A stretch of 64,000 nt of DNA. It comes from Oscillospiraceae bacterium (GTDB taxonomy: Bacteria > Bacillota > Clostridia > Monoglobales > Monoglobaceae). A program made the position numbers and the translations under genes. Of the stretch, positions 3,143 to 64,000 are shown one piece after another (positions within the stretch are counted from its first letter, which is position 1; each line of letters starts with the position of its first letter). Where the stretch lies: the NCBI GenBank assembly GCA_015068655.1, contig SVKC01000004.1, positions 104 through 64,103 on the forward strand, read 5' to 3'. The notes under the pieces are model-generated. The model did no database searches. It saw only the letters and a list, made by a program, of their open reading frames with translations, and was not told where the DNA came from.

Positions 3143-6100
3143 TCATTCCTCCACTTTATTGATATTATCTAAAAATGCCTTTATAGCATTTGTGAGCCTG
3201 ATTCTCTCTTCAACAACCAAAGTACGGTCAGCCGAAGCCCCCATATTCTGTATAGCTTCCGCATCTTCTATTACAGAACGCAAGGTCGCTTTTTCTTCTT
3301 CGGATGCATTGGGATACATTGCAAGTACGTTTTCCGCCTCCAAAATCTTTCTTGTCAGATAATTCGGTATAAGCACCTCTCTTGTTGGCATTGAAAGAAT
3401 ATTGGGATTGTTCTCTTCGATTATGTTTCCGTACATATCTTCAAAGGTCAGGTGAAAACGTCTTTGCGGCACCTTGCTTGCAAGCGAAGCATAGTCTCCT
3501 GTAAGCCCCGCTCCCGCAATTATCTGCGCCGCCTGTTCAGGAACATCAATCCCTGCAAATACAATCGGAGCCTCAACAGTGCAGTTTGCACCCTTGTCAA
3601 CATAATATCCGTTTGTACTGTAGTTGTTTTCAACTGTCAGGTCATACTGTTTGTTTGAATGAATATGGAAAGCCATATCTATATCCTCAAACACATTGTC
3701 GTGTACATATGTATATGCCGAACCGCTGTCAGGATAATAAGCCCCGTATGCATTTACCTGATTTTTGATGTAGTTTCCGAAAATCTCACTTCCCGGCTCC
3801 TGACCGAGAGTATATATTCCGCCTGCATCATAGGAACGCTGTGCGTAGTCCTCAATACGATTGTTTTTCACAACTGTATTTTTGCTTGTTACAGAATCAG
3901 CTGTACCTGTCCAGCCCCAGCCAAAGCATATGCCCGAATAGGGTATGTCACAAATATAATTTGAACTGATTTCGGTTGCTTCGGTATAATATGCCTGAAT
4001 ACCGGGAGCGCCCCAGTTGTAATCCCCGATTCTCGTAATATAGTTATTTGAAATTACGTTATTTTTGCACACCGCTTTTGAAGGAGTTGTTTCATCCTTT
4101 GAGATAATTTCAATCTCAGGTAAATAAAAGTAGGTGTTTTTGGTCTTTCTGACTCTTACATAACGGTATTTTTCAGAATCAGTAACATCTGCTGTTATGT
4201 CTCCGCTCTCGGTGTACTTTTCATCTGTAATATCACCAATGCTGTAAAGCACAGTATAATTGGAAAAATCTTCACTGTTTGACGCAAGAATTTCAAAATC
4301 TGTTCTTTCGGACTTCGTGGCTCTTTGTTTCAAGATAATCTTATCAATTTCATATGGTTTTTCCAAATCAACCTGCCAATATTCATTGGTGTAATTCGTA
4401 ACCCCCGGAACATATGTCCGCACATCATAAATATTCCAACCTCTCAGGTCGTCACCATCATTGGCATAAGCGGCATAATTCCCTATTTCGTTTACAGTCG
4501 AAGTAACCTTTTTGTTGTAAGCAACATTTTTTCCGTCTGTCAAGTCCTCCATATAAGCATCCTGAGGAGTTCCGACGGTTACAGCAGAATCACCGATGTC
4601 GCTGAATGCATTTCCGTTTATCAAAACATTTTCAGCACCGTCATAAAGTCCGATAGCAACCTTCGCAAGACCCGTGAATACGCTGTTTTCAAATTGAATA
4701 TTTTCTGCTGCCGCAACTGTTATGTTCGCATCAACTATTATATTTCCCGGAGCATATGCAGATTCAGGAATCTCAAACACAACCTGCGTCTGAGCCTGGT
4801 CGCCGAGAAAGCCTTTGTCGAAGTCCGTGTTTGTTGCATGAGCAAAGGTTATACCGTCAAAGCTTATGTTTTTCACCTTGTTGTCAAGGTTACTGCCTTT
4901 TATTCTCACAAGCTCGTCAAGTCTGGGTACGTACACAGAGGCAGTTTCCATATTTTCATTTTCAAAAGGCTTGTAGTACAAAACTCTCGTCTTTTTATCA
5001 AAATAAAATTCACCTTCGGTATCCAAAAGCTCCAACGCATTTTCCGCATAAAACTTGTTCTGCAACGTCAGCCAGAATATATGATACATTTTTCCGTCAA
5101 CAGGAGAGGATGTACTTTCATCCGGCTCAAAGGTCGTCATAAGCTCAAAAGGAATATCATCCATCAGCACAAGGGTTTGCCCGTTTCCTGCATCAGAAAG
5201 ACTTTTCACATTAATGGTAACCGAAGTCCATCCTCTCGAATAATGAAGCTGCATATCCTCAGGATTGGAAAATAATCCAATGTCCGATGAGTTTACGTAA
5301 TATCCAAGCTTCTTTCCGTCAACCTCATACATCGAACTGGGACTGATTTTTGTTTCGCTCTTTGCTCTCACAGCCTTATTGCCGTTTATGTACAGCTCAC
5401 GTATGGTCATTATGTCATCGTCAGTCACGCGTGTGGAATAAATCCCGTCACCGTCTTCATCCGAAAAGCCCTCGATTTTGCTTCCGCCTGAAATCACAAC
5501 ATTTTCGTTGTTGTATGCCTGATAATTGACGAAGTATCCGTTCTTACCCCCGTCCTCTTCCGAAAATACAAGGGTGTCGTCAAGCTCGTATGTTCCTTCC
5601 ATAAGATAAACATTTACATCCTCCGACATACCGCTGTTAAAGGTTCTTATTTCGCTTTGTGCTCTTTCAATTGTTGCAAAGGGCTTGTCAAGAGTTCCAG
5701 CCGCCGAATCATTACCATTTTTCGCAGAGACATAAATATTTTTGATATTACCCTTGTAAACCTTATTCTGTGCAAGAGGTGTCAAAGAATCCCTTTTCCA
5801 TACAAAAACTTTTATCTCTGAATCGTAAAGCTGCGGGTCTATGGAAAAGGGCATAACTACCTCTTTGGTATTCCCCGACTCAATCTCTGCATCTTCCCAT
5901 TCGGTATTTTTGAGCATACCTGTTGATGTGTACTGAGCCGCACATATAATCACACTCTGTTTTTCCGAAGAAAAGTTTGATATATTTGCCTTCACCGACG
6001 CCTCGGTCAGATTATGAAAATTATCTATGCTGCTGCCGCTTCCGTCAGCAGACTCATGCAATGTCACAGAATTTACTGCCAGTGCCGAAAGAGTTTCATA

Positions 6101-7486
6101 ATCTATTTCCACAGGTTCAGCAAGAGCAACATTCTTTTTGTTTTTTATTGTATTTTCAATGGTAAGGGTATATGAAAGCTCCTTGTTTGCCCTGGAAATA
6201 TCAACTGTATAGGTATATTCATCCTTTTTGGCTACATCCGCATTGAGAACATCACCGTTGCTGTCTGTGAGATATACACTTGAAGAACTAACTGTATCAG
6301 CATTCATTTCATCGCTGAAGTTTATAGTAAGCAAGCCATCCGAAAAGTCAACATCATTCACAACAGGATTAATCTCATACAAGGAAAAAGTTGAAAGAGC
6401 CGCACCCGTGGACATTCTTTTTTTGTATGTGAAATATCTGTATGCCTGGCTGTCATCAACCGTAGCACTGAATTTTCCCGCCTTGCCGTAAAGTGTTTCG
6501 TTTCCGGCAGGTACATATACCGCAGGAAAGGTTACCTGGCTGTCTATGGCATTCGCCATACTTCCCAATTTTATAAGTTTCTGAAAGCCCGCCGAGGCAA
6601 TTTCAGCTTCATCGGGTGCACTGTGAACATCAAAAATACTATTTTCTGTATCTTCGGTGTTGCTTCCGTATATATTGATATAGCTTCTGCTCCAATAATC
6701 GTCCTGTCTGTCGTCTATAGAAAAATCTCTTCCCGACATTTCAATCATACCGATATGATGTTTCTCCCCAAGGTCAACTCTCATATATCTATATGCATTT
6801 CCATCCTCAACCCAGCAGGTTGCGGTATTTCCGTCAAATGCTGTTTCAGGCGGTGCAAAATCATAAACCCAATGGGCATCATCCGAAAGTGCATCGCTTA
6901 TAATACTATCTGCACCTATTCCTCTTGCAATATCGGTAGCAGTCTGATTTGCCCATACTTTTATTTCAGCATACTGATAATCACCGCTTCCTGTTCGTTG
7001 AATTCTTATATATCTGTACGCCTTCTCTCCATCTGTCACAACCTCAAAAGCACCTTGATGAGGAAATATATCATCATTCTTTTCCGCAAGACTTCCGAGA
7101 GTTACAGCGTCCGAAAAATCCGGATTGTTTGCTGCAATAACATCAATAAACCTGCGTCCGTCCTGTGCATCATAATCATAACGGTCAAAAAGCTCAATTT
7201 TTTGAACCTTGTATCTTCTGAGAAGGTCTATTGTAAAAGCTTCCTTTCCTGCTCTTTCCGCACCAAACTCCGAAACTGTATAGCTTGCTCTGTCTCCGTC
7301 AGTGAGATTGGATACCTCCCACCCGGGTATTGTATGTGCATCCGGGTCGCTTGATGTTGTTGGTTTGTTCTGAGCTACGTTGGCAAGCTCCGTTTTCGTT
7401 ACGGGAAACTCTGCCGCCATAGCGGTCAGCGAAAGAAGTAAAACCAAAACCGTACATATGAATACCGATATTTTCAAAGCTTTCAA
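3143..7486 (-). CDS. protein A: secreted multidomain protein (2x discoidin, Ig-like, beta-sandwich, right-handed beta-helix with a nested discoidin domain); putative glycan-active enzyme
   Basis: Signal peptide (KALKISVFICTVLVLLLSLTAMA). Discoidin-type blocks include NLTDGD...AYRYIRIQ...YAEIKVWA. Beta-helix repeats include NVISNNYITRIG and YSGICFGWGW. The ORF-track start at 7495 is a GTG fused to GGAGG. TTG at 7486 sits 8 nt after GGAGG and gives a clean signal peptide. Confidence 0.8.
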   Translation of the reverse strand: MKALKISVFICTVLVLLLSLTAMAAEFPVTKTELANVAQNKPTTSSDPDAHTIPGWEVSNLTDGDRASYTVSEFGAERAGKEAFTIDLLRRYKVQKIELFDRYDYDAQDGRRFIDVIAANNPDFSDAVTLGSLAEKNDDIFPHQGAFEVVTDGEKAYRYIRIQRTGSGDYQYAEIKVWANQTATDIARGIGADSIISDALSDDAHWVYDFAPPETAFDGNTATCWVEDGNAYRYMRVDLGEKHHIGMIEMSGRDFSIDDRQDDYWSRSYINIYGSNTEDTENSIFDVHSAPDEAEIASAGFQKLIKLGSMANAIDSQVTFPAVYVPAGNETLYGKAGKFSATVDDSQAYRYFTYKKRMSTGAALSTFSLYEINPVVNDVDFSDGLLTINFSDEMNADTVSSSSVYLTDSNGDVLNADVAKKDEYTYTVDISRANKELSYTLTIENTIKNKKNVALAEPVEIDYETLSALAVNSVTLHESADGSGSSIDNFHNLTEASVKANISNFSSEKQSVIICAAQYTSTGMLKNTEWEDAEIESGNTKEVVMPFSIDPQLYDSEIKVFVWKRDSLTPLAQNKVYKGNIKNIYVSAKNGNDSAAGTLDKPFATIERAQSEIRTFNSGMSEDVNVYLMEGTYELDDTLVFSEEDGGKNGYFVNYQAYNNENVVISGGSKIEGFSDEDGDGIYSTRVTDDDIMTIRELYINGNKAVRAKSETKISPSSMYEVDGKKLGYYVNSSDIGLFSNPEDMQLHYSRGWTSVTINVKSLSDAGNGQTLVLMDDIPFELMTTFEPDESTSSPVDGKMYHIFWLTLQNKFYAENALELLDTEGEFYFDKKTRVLYYKPFENENMETASVYVPRLDELVRIKGSNLDNKVKNISFDGITFAHATNTDFDKGFLGDQAQTQVVFEIPESAYAPGNIIVDANITVAAAENIQFENSVFTGLAKVAIGLYDGAENVLINGNAFSDIGDSAVTVGTPQDAYMEDLTDGKNVAYNKKVTSTVNEIGNYAAYANDGDDLRGWNIYDVRTYVPGVTNYTNEYWQVDLEKPYEIDKIILKQRATKSERTDFEILASNSEDFSNYTVLYSIGDITDEKYTESGDITADVTDSEKYRYVRVRKTKNTYFYLPEIEIISKDETTPSKAVCKNNVISNNYITRIGDYNWGAPGIQAYYTEATEISSNYICDIPYSGICFGWGWTGTADSVTSKNTVVKNNRIEDYAQRSYDAGGIYTLGQEPGSEIFGNYIKNQVNAYGAYYPDSGSAYTYVHDNVFEDIDMAFHIHSNKQYDLTVENNYSTNGYYVDKGANCTVEAPIVFAGIDVPEQAAQIIAGAGLTGDYASLASKVPQRRFHLTFEDMYGNIIEENNPNILSMPTREVLIPNYLTRKILEAENVLAMYPNASEEEKATLRSVIEDAEAIQNMGASADRTLVVEERIRLTNAIKAFLDNINKVEE

Positions 7487-61386: not shown

Positions 61387-62009
61387 TATGCGTACACCTC
61401 CTCGAGTTTTGAAACTGCATCCTTCACGATGATGCACTTTGTATGTCCAAGTACCTCGTAAGTGTTGATTGCGCCAACGAAAGTTGTGTCAACACCCTTG
61501 ATGTTTCTTGCTGAACAAACAACATTCTTGTCGTTTTCAGGAAGAACGATGAGGGCTTTTTCAGTAACACCGAGGTTCTTCAGGATTTCAGCCATCTTAG
61601 CTGTCTTGATTTCATCAAGCTTAAGATCTTCAAGAACGATGATGTCATTGTCAACAACCTTTGAAGAAAGAGCAGACTTGAGAGCAAGTCTTCTTACCTT
61701 CTTGTTTACTGAGTATCTGTAATCTCTGGGCTTGGGACCGAGGGCTACGCCGCCGCCAACCCACTGTGGAGCACGGATACTACCCTGTCTTGCACGGCCG
61801 GTACCCTTCTGTCTCCAGGGCTTAATTCCGCCGCCGCTTACTTCTGTACGTGTTTTTGTGCTCTGTGTGCCCTGTCTCTGGTTTGCAAGGTAGTTCACAA
61901 CTACTTCATGCATAACGTCAGGTCTAACCTCAACACCAAACACGCTGTCATTCAATTCTATATCACCAACCTTAGCACCGGTTGTGTTATATAAAGCTAC
62001 TGTAGGCAT
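61386..62009 (-). CDS. rplD: 50S ribosomal protein L4
   Basis: 207 aa; [21 protein letters not shown]. Confidence 0.98.
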
Positions 62010-62034
62010 ATCTTATATCCTCCTCTCTCTCAGC

Positions 62035-62670
62035 TTAGGCATTTGCCTTAACTGCGTTCTTAACTACGAGCAAACCGCCCTTAGGACCGGGAACTGAACC
62101 CTTAACCAAAAGAAGGTTGCGTTCTGTATCTACTTTTACAAGACTGAGGTTCTGGATTGTAACCTTGTCAACACCGTAATGTCCGGGAAGTCTCTTACCC
62201 TTGTAAACACGTGAGGGTGATGAACAAGCACCCAAAGAACCGGGTCCTCTGTGATAATGGCTACCGTGAGTCATAGGACCTCTGTGAGTTCCCCATCTTT
62301 TGATTGTGCCAGCATATCCGTGACCCTTGCTTGTACCAGTAACGTCAAGGATGTCGCCTGCTTCAAAGATGTCAACTTTGATTTCGTCGCCAACATTCAT
62401 ATCAGCCGCATTGTCAAGCTTGAACTCTCTGAGGTATCTCTTGGGAGCAACGCCTGCTTTTGCGAAATGACCCTTCATAGGCTTGTTTACGTTCTTTTCT
62501 TTCTTGTCCTCGAAGCCAACCTGAACAGCAACGTAACCGTCAACTTCAGCTGTCTTCTTCTGAACTACACTGCAGGGACCTGCTTCAATTACTGTAACAG
62601 GAATGAGTGTACCGTCTTCTGCAAAAATCTGAGTCATACCGAGCTTTTTGCCTAAGATTGCTTTTTTCAT
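62035..62670 (-). CDS. rplC: 50S ribosomal protein L3
   Basis: [33 protein letters not shown].... Confidence 0.98.
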
Positions 62671-62779
62671 AATTTTTCCTCCTATTCACACGCATCGGTT
62701 TGAAAACAAACATACATGCGGGTTATTGGTTGACGAAAAACGCCAACATGACCAAAATTTTTTTACCGGAAATACTCAA

Positions 62780-63088
62780 CTATATCTTGAGCTCGATGTC
62801 TACACCTGCCGGCAAATCAAGGTGCTTGAGTGCGTCAATAGTCTTGGCGTTGGGAGCCAAAACGTCGATCAATCTCTTGTGAGTTCTGAGTTCGAACTGC
62901 TCACGGCTGTCCTTGTACTTGTGAACTGCTCTGAGGATTGTAACGACTTCCTTCTTTGTGGGGAGCGGGATAGGTCCTGAAACCTTAGCTCCTGTTCTCT
63001 TGGCTGTCTCAACAATCTTCTCGGCACTCTGGTCGATAAGATTGTGGTCATAAGCCTTAAGTCTGATTCTGATCTTCTCAGCTGCCAT
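62780..63088 (-). CDS. rpsJ: 30S ribosomal protein S10
   Basis: [44 protein letters not shown].... Confidence 0.98.
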
Positions 63089-63150
63089 GCTGTACCCTCC
63101 TTCAAAAATTACTTTTGATTTTTCCGCTGTGCCGGGCGTTTCGCACAGCT

Positions 63151-63204
63151 AAATAATAAAACCCGAACCTCTATTTTTGCTTTCACAAAGATGCGGTTTC
63201 GGGG
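63151..63204 (-). promoter_or_regulatory. intrinsic-terminator-like attenuator hairpin in the S10 operon leader
   Basis: Minus strand: CCCCGAAACC-N25-GGTTCGGG followed by TTTTATTATTT, 65-115 nt upstream of the rpsJ ATG. A second 7-bp hairpin, GCTGTGC-N10-GCACAGC, lies at 63126-63149. Confidence 0.5.
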
Positions 63205-63388
63205 CATAAACACAACGCAATCCGAGCCCATCAGCATACTGAGCCCGAAAATCTTGCTGTATTCAATTGAAAGTGTGACCTTCCGCCCTGTTTTGAAAAC
63301 CGGACAATCTCCTCCGAAATTTCCAGTCTCTCGAAAAAACAAGAGCTGCTACCTCCGGAATCATCGTATGTCTTTGTCACGCCCTGAT

Positions 63389-63418
63389 ATTATACTACAC
63401 TTTTAATGCAAAAGTCAA
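63389..63418 (-). promoter_or_regulatory. S10 operon promoter
   Basis: Minus strand: TTGACT-N18-TATAAT, preceded by an A/T-rich UP-like tract. Predicts a ~295-nt leader. Confidence 0.7.
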
Positions 63419-63451
63419 GTATTTTTTTCAAATTTTTTTAAAAAATTTTCC

Positions 63452-63556
63452 TTCACTCTCCAAAGCCTTGTGTAAAGGGAGGGGGACCACCGAAGGTGGT
63501 GGAGGGATTGTAAGCGAACCAAAGAACCAATTTTTTCTTGCAAAATTCTTCCTTTT
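63452..63556 (+). repeat. 105-bp direct repeat, copy 1 (REP-like double hairpin plus promoter -35)
   Basis: Identical to 63896-64000 except one base (63525 A vs 63969 G). Contains CCACC-gaa-GGTGG and ends in TTGCAA plus spacer. Confidence 0.95.
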
Positions 63557-63566
63557 GTTATATAAT
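63538..63566 (+). promoter_or_regulatory. sigma-A promoter reading rightwards
   Basis: TTGCAA-N17-TATAAT. The -35 and most of the spacer lie inside repeat copy 1. Confidence 0.65.
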
Positions 63567-63662
63567 GATTTCAGGCAAGATTTCTTAACGGTGTTTACAC
63601 CGGCGGTTATGTCCACCTTTACATACAAGCTTTGTGCTGAGTTTATGAAAGGGGGAATGCTT

Positions 63663-63791
63663 ATGAAAAGTAAGCATATTGCTACATATGGCAAAAAAAT
63701 TGCTCTTTGCAATTTTAGAAATTATCATACTTCTGATAATTTTTTCCATAAAAGCACAATAGCCGCCCTCTGCCAAGGTCGGCTATTGTAA
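63663..63791 (+). CDS. candidate small ORF (42 aa, basic)
   Basis: MKSKHIATYGKKIALCNFRNYHTSDNFFHKSTIAALCQGRLL. Strong RBS GGGGGA 6 nt upstream. Downstream of the 63538 promoter. No recognisable family. Confidence 0.3.
   Translation: MKSKHIATYGKKIALCNFRNYHTSDNFFHKSTIAALCQGRLL
63688..63762 (+). CDS. candidate small hydrophobic ORF (24 aa), +1 frame inside the 42-aa ORF
   Basis: Own translation: MAKKLLFAILEIIILLIIFSIKAQ, a basic N-terminus followed by one TM-like helix. No clear SD. The stop lies in the left arm of the 63756-63789 hairpin. Confidence 0.2.
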   Translation: MAKKLLFAILEIIILLIIFSIKAQ

Positions 63792-63838
63792 AAAATAGTC
63801 TATTTATGGCATAACCGTTTGAGGTCTTGCCTTTTTGT
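63748..63838 (-). ncRNA. candidate ~90-nt antisense sRNA
   Basis: Predicted from the perfect minus-strand promoter at 63845-63873 and the hairpin ACAATAGCCG-N14-CGGCTATTGT (63789-63756) followed by GCTTTTATGG. Complementary to the 3' part of the plus-strand small-ORF transcript. Confidence 0.4.
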
Positions 63839-63840
63839 AT
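63808..63840 (+). terminator. terminator-like hairpin for the plus-strand small-ORF transcript
   Basis: GGCATAACC-gtttga-GGTCTTGCC (9-bp stem with a 2-nt internal mismatch) followed by TTTTTGTATTTTT. Confidence 0.45.
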
Positions 63841-63844
63841 TTTT

Positions 63845-63873
63845 ATTATATAGGATATTTCGTATTTTGTCAA
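63845..63873 (-). promoter_or_regulatory. perfect-consensus sigma-A promoter reading leftwards
   Basis: Minus strand: TTGACA-N17-TATAAT, exact at both hexamers. Confidence 0.7.
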
Positions 63874-63895
63874 CTGTTTTTTGTTGGTTAATATA

Positions 63896-64000
63896 TTCAC
63901 TCTCCAAAGCCTTGTGTAAAGGGAGGGGGACCACCGAAGGTGGTGGAGGGATTGTAAGCGAACCAAAGGACCAATTTTTTCTTGCAAAATTCTTCCTTTT
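63896..64000 (+). repeat. 105-bp direct repeat, copy 2 (runs into the window edge)
   Basis: See copy 1. The copy is truncated by the end of the window exactly in the promoter spacer, so the true repeat may be longer. Confidence 0.95.

Follow-up and report, generated by a model that had tools for sequence, protein, structure and literature searches.

What is encoded between the two convergent promoters near the end of a gut bacterial contig, and could it be a toxin with its antisense antidote? The question is raised by positions 63538-63873 of the DNA analysed here, a stretch of 64,000 nucleotides (nt) of contig SVKC01000004.1 (C3:104-64103; hereafter the window) from assembly GCA_015068655.1, a metagenome-assembled genome of an Oscillospiraceae bacterium from a gut sample (70 contigs, 1.78 Mb). 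An earlier reading of this DNA (the original prediction) had seen in it a type I toxin-antitoxin (TA)-like layout, with convergent promoters, a small hydrophobic open reading frame (ORF) and an antisense RNA that complements the 3' end of the messenger RNA (mRNA). The same convergent architecture recurred across many genomes and in unrelated genomic contexts, in well over 100 cassettes, and this recurrence supported the layout. We consider that 63538-63873 is probably one unit of a multi-copy type I TA-like cassette. Judged from the sequences compared, conservation among the cassettes extends to the frame of the peptide, the promoter of the antisense RNA, the terminator hairpin and the structure of the mRNA.

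Architecture of the window cassette

Every feature of the original prediction was found in its place (Table 1). The complementarity of the two predicted RNAs over their 3' ends, including the end of the peptide ORF, was likewise borne out by the sequence. The feature set of the cassette is far beyond chance. The window held three perfect consensus promoters versus 0.00 expected from shuffles, and the cassette region held 11 promoter-like sites versus 3.0 +/- 2.0 expected. The predicted mRNA (63573-63842) folded with -99.7 kcal/mol (z = -8.7), and the predicted antisense RNA (63838-63746) adopted a two-hairpin fold (z = -5.4). The contig stops 84 nt past the window, inside a second copy of the cassette.

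The whole genome (G000, 1.78 Mb) contained 57 perfect TTGACA-N17-TATAAT sites, many of them before genes, riboswitch-like leaders and transfer RNAs (tRNAs). Since such sites precede real genes and tRNAs, the perfect consensus seems to be of use for predicting promoters in this organism.

Table 1. Features of the cassette, its flanks and the neighbouring S10 operon, in window coordinates (SD, Shine-Dalgarno sequence; UTR, untranslated region; REP, repetitive extragenic palindromic).
Feature	Position	Strand	Remarks
Cassette unit	63538-63873		convergent promoters, mRNA (+), antisense RNA (-)
Peptide-mRNA promoter, TTGCAA-N17-TATAAT	63538-63566	+	10/12 consensus positions; predicted start ~63573
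mRNA 5' end	63574-63611	+	P1a GGCAAGA 63574-63580; internal hairpin 63589-63602; P1b CGGTTATG 63604-63611; P1a and P1b complement the two arms of T2
SD-sequestering hairpin	63612-63656	+	anti-SD TCCACCTTT 63612-63620 pairs with SD AAAGGGGGA 63648-63656
ATG1 hairpin, ATGCTTA-TGAAAAG-TAAGCAT	63657-63677	+	conserved; holds the SD-proximal start ATG1 (63663)
ORF0, 42 codons	63663-63791	+	starts at ATG1; GGGGGA 6 nt upstream of ATG1; out of frame with the peptide gene and covers all of it
24-residue hydrophobic peptide gene, MAKKLLFAILEIIILLIIFSIKAQ	63688-63762	+	nested in the +1 frame; toxin candidate; stop codon within T1
T1 hairpin	63756-63789	both	arms 63756-63769 and 63776-63789, 93% complementary; followed on the minus strand by GCTTTTATGG; predicted antisense-RNA terminator
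T2 imperfect hairpin, GGCATAACCGTTTGAGGTCTTGCC	63808-63831, with T-run to 63844	+	predicted mRNA 3' end; partner of the mRNA 5' end; its complement is the antisense-RNA 5' hairpin
Predicted antisense RNA, ~90 nt	63838-63746	-	5' hairpin GGCAAGACCUCAAACGGUUAUGCC, variable A/U-rich linker, T1 hairpin, U-tract
Antisense promoter, perfect TTGACA-N17-TATAAT	63873-63845	-	all consensus positions
105-nt direct repeat, copy 1	63452-63556	+	REP-like 45-nt unit (63466-63511), linker, -35 of the peptide-mRNA promoter; 99% identity to 63896-64000
Start of second tandem cassette	63896-64000	+	repeat copy 2: REP-like unit and promoter; runs past the window and is cut by the contig end; 5'UTR close to that of the second cassette on contig C7
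rpsJ	62780-63088	-	S10 operon
S10 promoter, TTGACT-N18-TATAAT	63418-63389	-	A/T-rich stretch ahead of it
S10 leader, S10-Clostridia (RF03136)-like	63372-63281	-	22.3 bits, below the gathering score of 35.1

Copies and distribution of the cassettes

This genome carried at least six cassette copies: the window unit, the cut tandem copy beside it, two in tandem on contig C7, and one each on contigs C46 and C48. Cassette DNA matched 41 of 61 relatives, and the exact 24-nt T2 motif occurred in at least 118 stretches from GTDB species representatives. The T2-carrying records bore titles of uncultured gut Clostridia (Oscillospiraceae, 'Ruminococcus sp.', Ructibacterium, Ca. Ornithomonoglobus), and their sources were the guts of goat, buffalo, deer, human (Hadza), rabbit, mouse and bird. 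A covariance model, R1, was built on 131 antisense-RNA sequences. It matched 75 of 151 genomes and 22 of 33 genera of the order and, across the class, 55 of 401 genomes drawn evenly (37 of 216 genera), with up to 14 copies per genome. The relative G075, whose 2.8-Mb genome is closed, carried seven. The search for homologous cassettes, suggested at the outset, thereby recovered both halves of the locus, with the peptide conserved in relatives and the antisense RNA found by the covariance model. In the set of loci fetched by exact T2 match, T2 is invariant by the choice of loci; because such loci cannot show T2 variation, 40 divergent cassettes were fetched via R1 matches. No cassette match was obtained in plasmid and phage collections. 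IMG/VR gave only five matches, three of them within ~300 nt of a contig end and possibly host flank.

Antisense-RNA genes without a complete partner were also encountered. In L009, L012, L176, L195, L196 and L204 the antisense promoter was intact, and the RNA gene stood beside the last peptide codons only or beside nothing. Orphan antisense genes with remnants of the peptide gene are the pattern expected of decaying TA loci in which the toxin half is lost first.

Three loci, L004, L006 and L010 (genomes G029, G021 and G002), occupied one chromosomal site beside the end of a conserved gene (...EEAMEVVDSIIASLDAQGIPMKK), with a class C cassette in two species and a class B cassette in the third (classes are described below). 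This shared site suggests that cassettes are replaced at hot spots.

A REP-like 45-nt unit, CTTGTGTAAAGGGAGGGGGACCACCGAAGGTGGTGGAGGGATTGT, consists of a purine-rich frame around a GAAG-loop hairpin. It bordered every cassette in this genome, at 63466-63511 and 63910-63955 in the window and at about 4477-4520, 4880-4925 and 5290-5331 in L001 (contig C7). Isolated copies with 83-100% identity were present in many genomes, both of the genus and of other families, and in variants the frame was kept and the hairpin swapped, such as CTGTCACGAAGTGACTG in L009. Most cassettes outside this genome were without it.

The hydrophobic frame is the conserved product

We screened the cassettes for a short ORF ending 10-90 nt upstream of T2. 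Such an ORF was present in 125 of 146 cassettes, and it mostly encoded a hydrophobic peptide of 20-24 residues ending in I-K-x. In class A (MDNEYIISFMIILLLLVISIKK, 22 residues), class A' (MEYVYIMIYIITLIVLIITIKK, 22 residues) and class B (MGKYILRIIFLTIVFLIALTKKVR, 24 residues) the start codon lies directly behind the SD. The peptide of class C, to which the window belongs (M[AV][KR]KLL...IIFSIKA[QEK], 24 residues), has no SD of its own.

Two frames compete in class C, and codon comparison separated them. The synonymous share of differing codon pairs was 0.337 in the hydrophobic frame, 0.105 in the 42-codon frame (ORF0) and 0.14 in the third frame. Within the hydrophobic frame the second codon position was the least variable (0.11 versus 0.41 and 0.43), and its start codon, ATG2, was always kept or replaced by GTG (three homologues). 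Because of this synonymous excess, the constrained second position and the kept start, the hydrophobic ORF is the conserved product. The original prediction had cautioned that the 24-residue ORF lacks a clear SD and could be a by-product of AT-rich sequence. The first point stands, in that ATG2 never has its own SD. The second does not, given the 34% versus 10.5% synonymous changes and the sister classes that put the ORF behind a strong SD.

A sequencing-error frameshift in the window copy was considered as a source of the two-ATG layout and rejected, as the layout recurs in ~20 distinct homologues.

Two variations on the peptide were noted. The divergent cassettes L182-L185 (genome G046, another family of the order) encoded longer peptides of ~38 residues with a basic tail, e.g. 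MEIIVAIVAFATLTMFSIACLSIVLYKLAKRKRPHTKK. In L002 (contig C46, ~C46:21290-21390, minus strand) the run before the stop codon was A6, versus A7 in relatives, so that the peptide reads on through the terminator to give 34 residues, MEYVYIMIYIITLIVLIITIKNNASPCKALALFF. The shorter run could mean that this copy is decaying, that the homopolymer was misassembled or that the gene is phase-variable.

ORF0 and the start region of class C

Every class C member had the SD, about 6 nt, and then ATGAAAAGTAAGCAT, which forms the hairpin holding ATG1. This hairpin (helix 5) was 98.6% paired, and its changes were wobble-compatible only. ATG2 followed 7 or 10 nt past ATGAAAAGTAAGCAT, always in the +1 frame. ATG1 and ATG2 stood 22 or 25 nt apart in most class C members; for one whose loop is enlarged, a manual reading gave 31 nt. 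These spacings place ATG2 in the +1 frame.

Might ORF0, the 42-residue basic ORF, be the real product of the window copy, and the hydrophobic frame incidental? Its SD-ATG spacing is optimal, ATG1 and the first codons (MKSKH) are nearly invariant, and the frame is always open: all 17 distinct class C members kept it open over the full length of the peptide gene, versus 22 of 66 for the same frame in classes A and B. When synonymous codons were resampled, ORF0 stayed open in ~50% of draws (mean 0.50 per cassette); the product over 17 members, 1.5e-6, is optimistic because the sequences are related. However, the changes in ORF0 are nearly all non-synonymous (the 0.105 versus 0.337 above), its C-terminus and length vary (40-63 residues) and it ends in or past T1. 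The invariance of ATGAAAAGTAAGCAT reaches third codon positions and forms a hairpin, and the sister classes encode the hydrophobic peptide only, with no ORF0 at all. We therefore regard ORF0 as the product with great scepticism. The original prediction had described a 42-codon ORF with a strong SD that was not toxin-like. The SD is there and the frame is not a conserved product; yet its start codon and its openness are conserved. ORF0 is probably a leader or decoy frame.

In class C the SD would serve ATG1, and the ATG2 of the peptide (63688) has none of its own. Two readings of this arrangement can be proposed. Translation of ORF0 may couple to or occlude that of the peptide, as in mok-like leaders. 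Alternatively the ATG1 hairpin, when formed, may hide ATG1 and put the SD at working distance from ATG2. One class C variant, L081 (~6393-6650), has lost the ATG1 hairpin by deletion; its leader frame is MAYC-stop, with a TAATG overlap onto the peptide ATG, and it is a predicted case of classical stop-start (termination-reinitiation) coupling.

We also considered programmed +1 frameshifting or transcriptional slippage at the A7 run (63693-63699), which would join ATG1 to the hydrophobic frame. This was rejected because many homologues interrupt the run with substitutions that are synonymous for the peptide (AAG, AGA), and because ATG2 (or GTG) is always there.

The predicted antisense RNA gene

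The antisense promoter was the best-conserved part of the cassette. Of 135 unique cassettes, 133 had 10 or more of the 12 consensus positions, with a perfect TTGACA in 128 and a perfect TATAAT in 118. The spacer was 17 nt long in 125 cassettes, and its sequence was not conserved. From the end of the -10 element to GGCAAGACC the distance was 13-15 nt in 126 of 133 cassettes, and 14 nt in 92. The mRNA promoter was weaker, matching at least 9 of 12 positions in 100 of 123 unique cassettes, mostly as TTGAAA-N17-TATAAT.

The 5' hairpin of the antisense RNA, GGCAAGACCUCAAACGGUUAUGCC, was near-invariant, and the A/U-rich linker behind it differed among cassettes. In T1, which was 98.8% paired over 131 sequences, eight of nine base pairs had changes on both sides; the covariation score was 0.283 versus 0.102, a value reached by 0 of 500 shuffles. 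The antisense RNA is fully complementary to the 3' part of the mRNA, that is, to the last peptide codons, T1, the linker and T2. The lysine codon or codons in the C-terminal I-K motif of the peptide are complementary to the U-tract of this RNA. That these codons encode the U-tract may be one reason why the I-K motif is so constant. Taken as a comparison of sequences, the data support a predicted cis antisense RNA gene with its own conserved promoter, hairpins and terminator.

Predicted masking of the SD and pairing of the mRNA 5' end with T2

The anti-SD stands directly downstream of P1b and pairs with the SD. The probability of the SD being unpaired was 0.03 for cassettes of classes A and B, rising to 0.17 for those of class C, versus 0.28-0.33 when the upstream sequence was shuffled, and in 74 of 76 cassettes the SD was more paired than in the shuffled controls. 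Anti-SD and SD showed compensatory changes, e.g. ATCATCTC/GGAGGTGAT versus GTCACTTC/GGAGGTGAC.

P1a (GGCAAGA) and P1b (CGGUUAUG) are exact complements of the T2 arms, and both the minimum-free-energy fold and the RNAalifold consensus closed the mRNA through 5'-3' helices. Helices 1 and 3 of this closure were 98.7% and 99.0% paired in 19 class C sequences. When 27 distinct T2 types were compared, the cognate 5'UTR was the best partner in 17; the mean cognate duplex was -38.0 kcal/mol versus -28.4 kcal/mol for non-cognate ones, and 0 of 10,000 permutations were as good. Co-changes were also read by eye, such as GGCAAG/CUUGCC to GGUAA/UUACC in the closed genome G075, and GAGUAAGGCUC with GAGCCUUGCUC in family f6 (also in L182-L185 of G046). 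Together, these comparisons strongly support predicted SD masking and a co-evolving complementarity between the 5' and 3' ends.

The strand on which this complementarity is kept bears on its cause. Transitions in the 5' arm of 59 canonical cassettes kept a G.U pair on the mRNA strand in 98 cases and gave A.C in 14. This wobble asymmetry favours RNA pairing as the cause of the 5'/T2 complementarity, and terminal inverted repeats at the DNA level are disfavoured.

The same asymmetry weighs on the view that the cassette is a non-coding mobile or REP-associated repeat, similar to a miniature inverted-repeat transposable element, with inverted ends and outward promoters and no peptide or antisense function. 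Such a repeat would be multi-copy and tandem, and here the copies are flanked by the REP-like 45-nt units and by 105-nt direct repeats; the 5' segment and T2 do form an inverted repeat at the DNA level, and the presence of cassettes varies among congeners. However, the peptide frame is under coding-type constraint, the 5'-arm changes favour G.U on one strand (98 to 14), neither of the two conserved promoters is part of the inverted repeat, and most cassettes in other genomes lack the REP-like unit. In the stretches read by eye, where no systematic search was made, no gene for a transposase was seen beside cassettes. A purely mobile, non-coding repeat is consequently very improbable.

In classes A and B T1 is followed by a T-run on the mRNA strand too, so only read-through transcripts would hold T2. 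In class C an A-run follows T1 on the mRNA strand, and the mRNA should therefore continue to T2.

Additional elements were seen in the 5'UTR. Some members had an extra 5'-terminal stem-loop, GUCGGAGCAAUCCGAC, ahead of P1a. In L180, L187, L197, L200, L201 and L209, from other genomes, GC-rich repeats of ~100-130 nt with strings such as GAGGAACAGCCGCG...GCGACGA sat between P1a and P1b, where they replaced the small internal hairpin; related strings flanked L176, L179 and L181. These repeats look like a separate miniature repeat family landing in the internal hairpin.

Proposed mechanism and its assessment

From these elements we propose the following sequence of events. A moderately strong promoter would make an mRNA of ~265 nt for the 24-residue, single-helix hydrophobic peptide. 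In this mRNA the SD would be locked in a hairpin by the anti-SD, and the 5' end would pair with T2 and close the molecule. The convergent promoter, of consensus strength, would make the ~90-nt antisense RNA ending at T1. The closed, SD-masked mRNA would be long-lived and poorly translated. The antisense RNA, being more strongly transcribed, would pair first at the linker, which is predicted to be unstructured in both RNAs and is specific to each cassette. Pairing would then extend through T1 and T2 to form a duplex of ~85 bp, expelling the mRNA 5' end that the antisense RNA copies. This duplex would be open to a double-strand-specific ribonuclease (RNase) such as RNase III, and to exonucleases, and the peptide would accumulate only once the antisense RNA falls. 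The sequence would also permit a loop-loop contact, in which GUUUGAG of a free T2 meets CUCAAAC of the antisense 5' hairpin; a YUNR motif is found in both loops.

A broader claim can be made, and we put it forward tentatively, as possible rather than probable. The cassettes would form an undescribed, class-wide type I TA family in which the antisense 5' hairpin mimics the mRNA 5' end and competes with it for the 3' tail, antisense binding and mRNA closure being mutually exclusive. In one subclass, a hairpin would toggle the SD between ORF0 and the SD-less toxin frame.

Several points weigh against a type I TA-like cassette working in this manner. The step from antisense binding at the 3' end to reduced synthesis of the peptide is inferred by analogy. 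The candidate toxins have 20-24 residues, versus 28-60 for most Gram-positive type I toxins (PMC6563280). In classes A and B the mRNA may largely end before T2, which would limit 5'-3' closure to read-through. The two-sided covariation between the 5' end and T2 rests on the smaller divergent set, and the sequences are phylogenetically related, so that the shuffle and permutation figures overstate independence. In favour of expression, Logan metatranscriptome contigs, looked up for the window and for a closed-genome relative, cover the mRNA body and the T2 region; these contigs are unstranded, come from relatives only, break at the repeated T2 and may include DNA.

The peptide could instead be a harmless membrane or regulatory micro-protein under cis-antisense tuning, with no addiction or toxin module involved. 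At 20-24 residues it is very short, no toxin family model matched it, and the loci are chromosomal and absent from plasmid and phage collections. However, the many copies, the tandem arrays, the patchy presence among congeners and the orphan antisense genes are typical of type I TA loci and unusual for small-protein genes. Moreover, the antisense promoter outranks the mRNA promoter in strength, and translation is masked in several layers. We consider a harmless micro-protein unlikely, and the type I TA-like cassette was retained as the preferred reading.

The neighbouring S10 operon

The minus-strand consensus promoter of the cassette points toward rpsJ, and the original prediction had allowed that it might instead drive the S10 operon from far upstream, in attenuated form. 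Some read-through is plausible, as the U-tract after T1 is interrupted (GCUUUUAUGG). However, the S10 operon has its own promoter and leader, which were 84-96% identical across the genus, and the promoter-plus-RNA unit of the cassette occurs in well over 100 unrelated contexts. In addition, the S10 loci of 25 congeners held no R1 match upstream of rpsJ. The suggestion was accordingly dropped, and we find a far-upstream S10 promoter barely credible. Since none of these 25 S10 loci matched R1, we regard the cassette pair as an accessory insertion in this species and not as S10 control. An empty-site comparison upstream of rpsJ found no congener with the cassette, in a region too variable between species for insertion borders to be drawn.

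The leader-like segment at 63372-63281 may be a divergent S10-Clostridia leader, which its position and its conservation across the genus would fit. A similar promoter stands before a gene on contig C41 which, read by eye, we take to be rpsF (S6).

Significance for annotation and RNA biology

ORFs of 20-24 codons generally fall below the usual length limits of gene calling. The family is invisible to annotation, with a peptide too short to be called and an RNA present in no RNA library. Among uncultured bacteria of the Oscillospiraceae type, which are dominant in the guts of ruminants and humans, it seems to be common and to occur in multiple copies, and the covariance model R1 and the peptide classes can be used for annotating such genomes. 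Assemblies break because cassette repeats are near-identical, and the window contig itself ends inside one. The family also presents three starts for one candidate toxin: directly behind the SD, via a leader ORF, and via a stop-start overlap. An antisense RNA that mimics the 5' end of its own target may offer a testable idea about RNA regulation.

Comparison with known type I toxin-antitoxin systems

We searched for known families at several levels. Positions 62000-64000, compared with all families of Rfam 15 at E values up to 10, gave no type I TA RNA family. Beyond the weak S10 leader match there was only noise driven by T1, namely RsaJ (22.5 bits versus a threshold of 100), psm_mec and others. 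Six peptide variants searched against Pfam and NCBIfam at E values up to 10 matched no type I toxin family, and gave two weak, unrelated Pfam matches for one paralogue. A full-text literature search with the motif and peptide strings returned no paper.

The convergent layout is that of Gram-positive systems. T1TAdb lists 24 families, and its Gram-positive ones share the 3'-overlap layout (PMC8594479). With par (Fst/RNA II of Enterococcus faecalis pAD1) and the Fst/Ldr systems the cassettes share, as predicted from their sequence, a convergent mRNA and small RNA with a common terminator hairpin, a 5'UTR whose structure limits translation, and a hydrophobic peptide that is small and forms a single helix; tandem and chromosomal copies are frequent in both. 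They differ in that no Fst or Ldr match was found in Pfam and NCBIfam and no RNA II match in Rfam, and the cassette peptides have 20-24 residues without the Fst motif. Direct repeats make the two par RNAs complementary to each other in their 5' regions, whereas here the antisense 5' hairpin and the mRNA 5' end are of the same sense and both complement the mRNA 3' end (T2).

In txpA/RatA and bsrG/SR4 of Bacillus subtilis the antisense RNA likewise reaches over the toxin mRNA from its 3' end into the last part of the ORF (layout in PMC8594479). The action expected in these systems and in the cassettes is degradation that depends on the duplex, with or without a structural change at the SD. Their toxins have 38-59 residues and are prophage-linked, whereas the phage and plasmid collections yielded no cassette and IMG/VR only the five matches; sequence and family models revealed no similarity.

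Folding back of the mRNA has its counterparts in hok/sok-mok of plasmid R1 and AapA1/IsoA1 of Helicobacter pylori, in which the mRNA is closed by 5'-3' pairing and the SD is masked. Class C also shares with mok/hok an overlapping, out-of-frame leader ORF that has a good SD and runs across the toxin ORF; the mok leader overlapping hok was reportedly described by Franch et al. in 1997 (as cited in PMC8594479). These systems are Gram-negative, and the target of their antisense RNA is the translation start or the 5' part of the mRNA, whereas here the antisense RNA covers the 3' part, with which the 5' end also pairs. The comparison with Pfam and Rfam gave no Hok (Hok_Gef) and no Sok RNA match.

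Ibs/Sib and ShoB/OhsC of Escherichia coli resemble the cassettes in their almost purely hydrophobic peptides of 18-26 residues and their multi-copy loci. They belong to another phylum, Sib covers the whole ibs ORF, OhsC is divergent, and no family model of either matched.

Within the class Clostridia, the type I TA systems of Clostridioides difficile (e.g. CD2517.1/RCd8) have in common with the cassettes a convergent antisense RNA, predicted in the latter, and a membrane peptide with a lysine-rich C-terminus (PMC6563280, PMC5961336). Their toxins, of 34-59 residues, differ from the cassette peptides, lie by CRISPR arrays or in prophages, and showed no similarity by family models. The literature on type I TA in Clostridia is almost only that of C. 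difficile, homology searches having found almost nothing in other Clostridia (PMC6563280), and it makes no mention of Oscillospiraceae or Ruminococcus relatives; the cassette family would fall into this gap. By the tests run, the cassettes are a member of none of these systems: their layout resembles txpA/RatA, bsrG/SR4 and par, and their fold-back and leader ORF resemble hok/mok and AapA1. Together, these comparisons suggested that the cassettes are a widespread, apparently undescribed type I TA-like family with an unusual regulatory anatomy.

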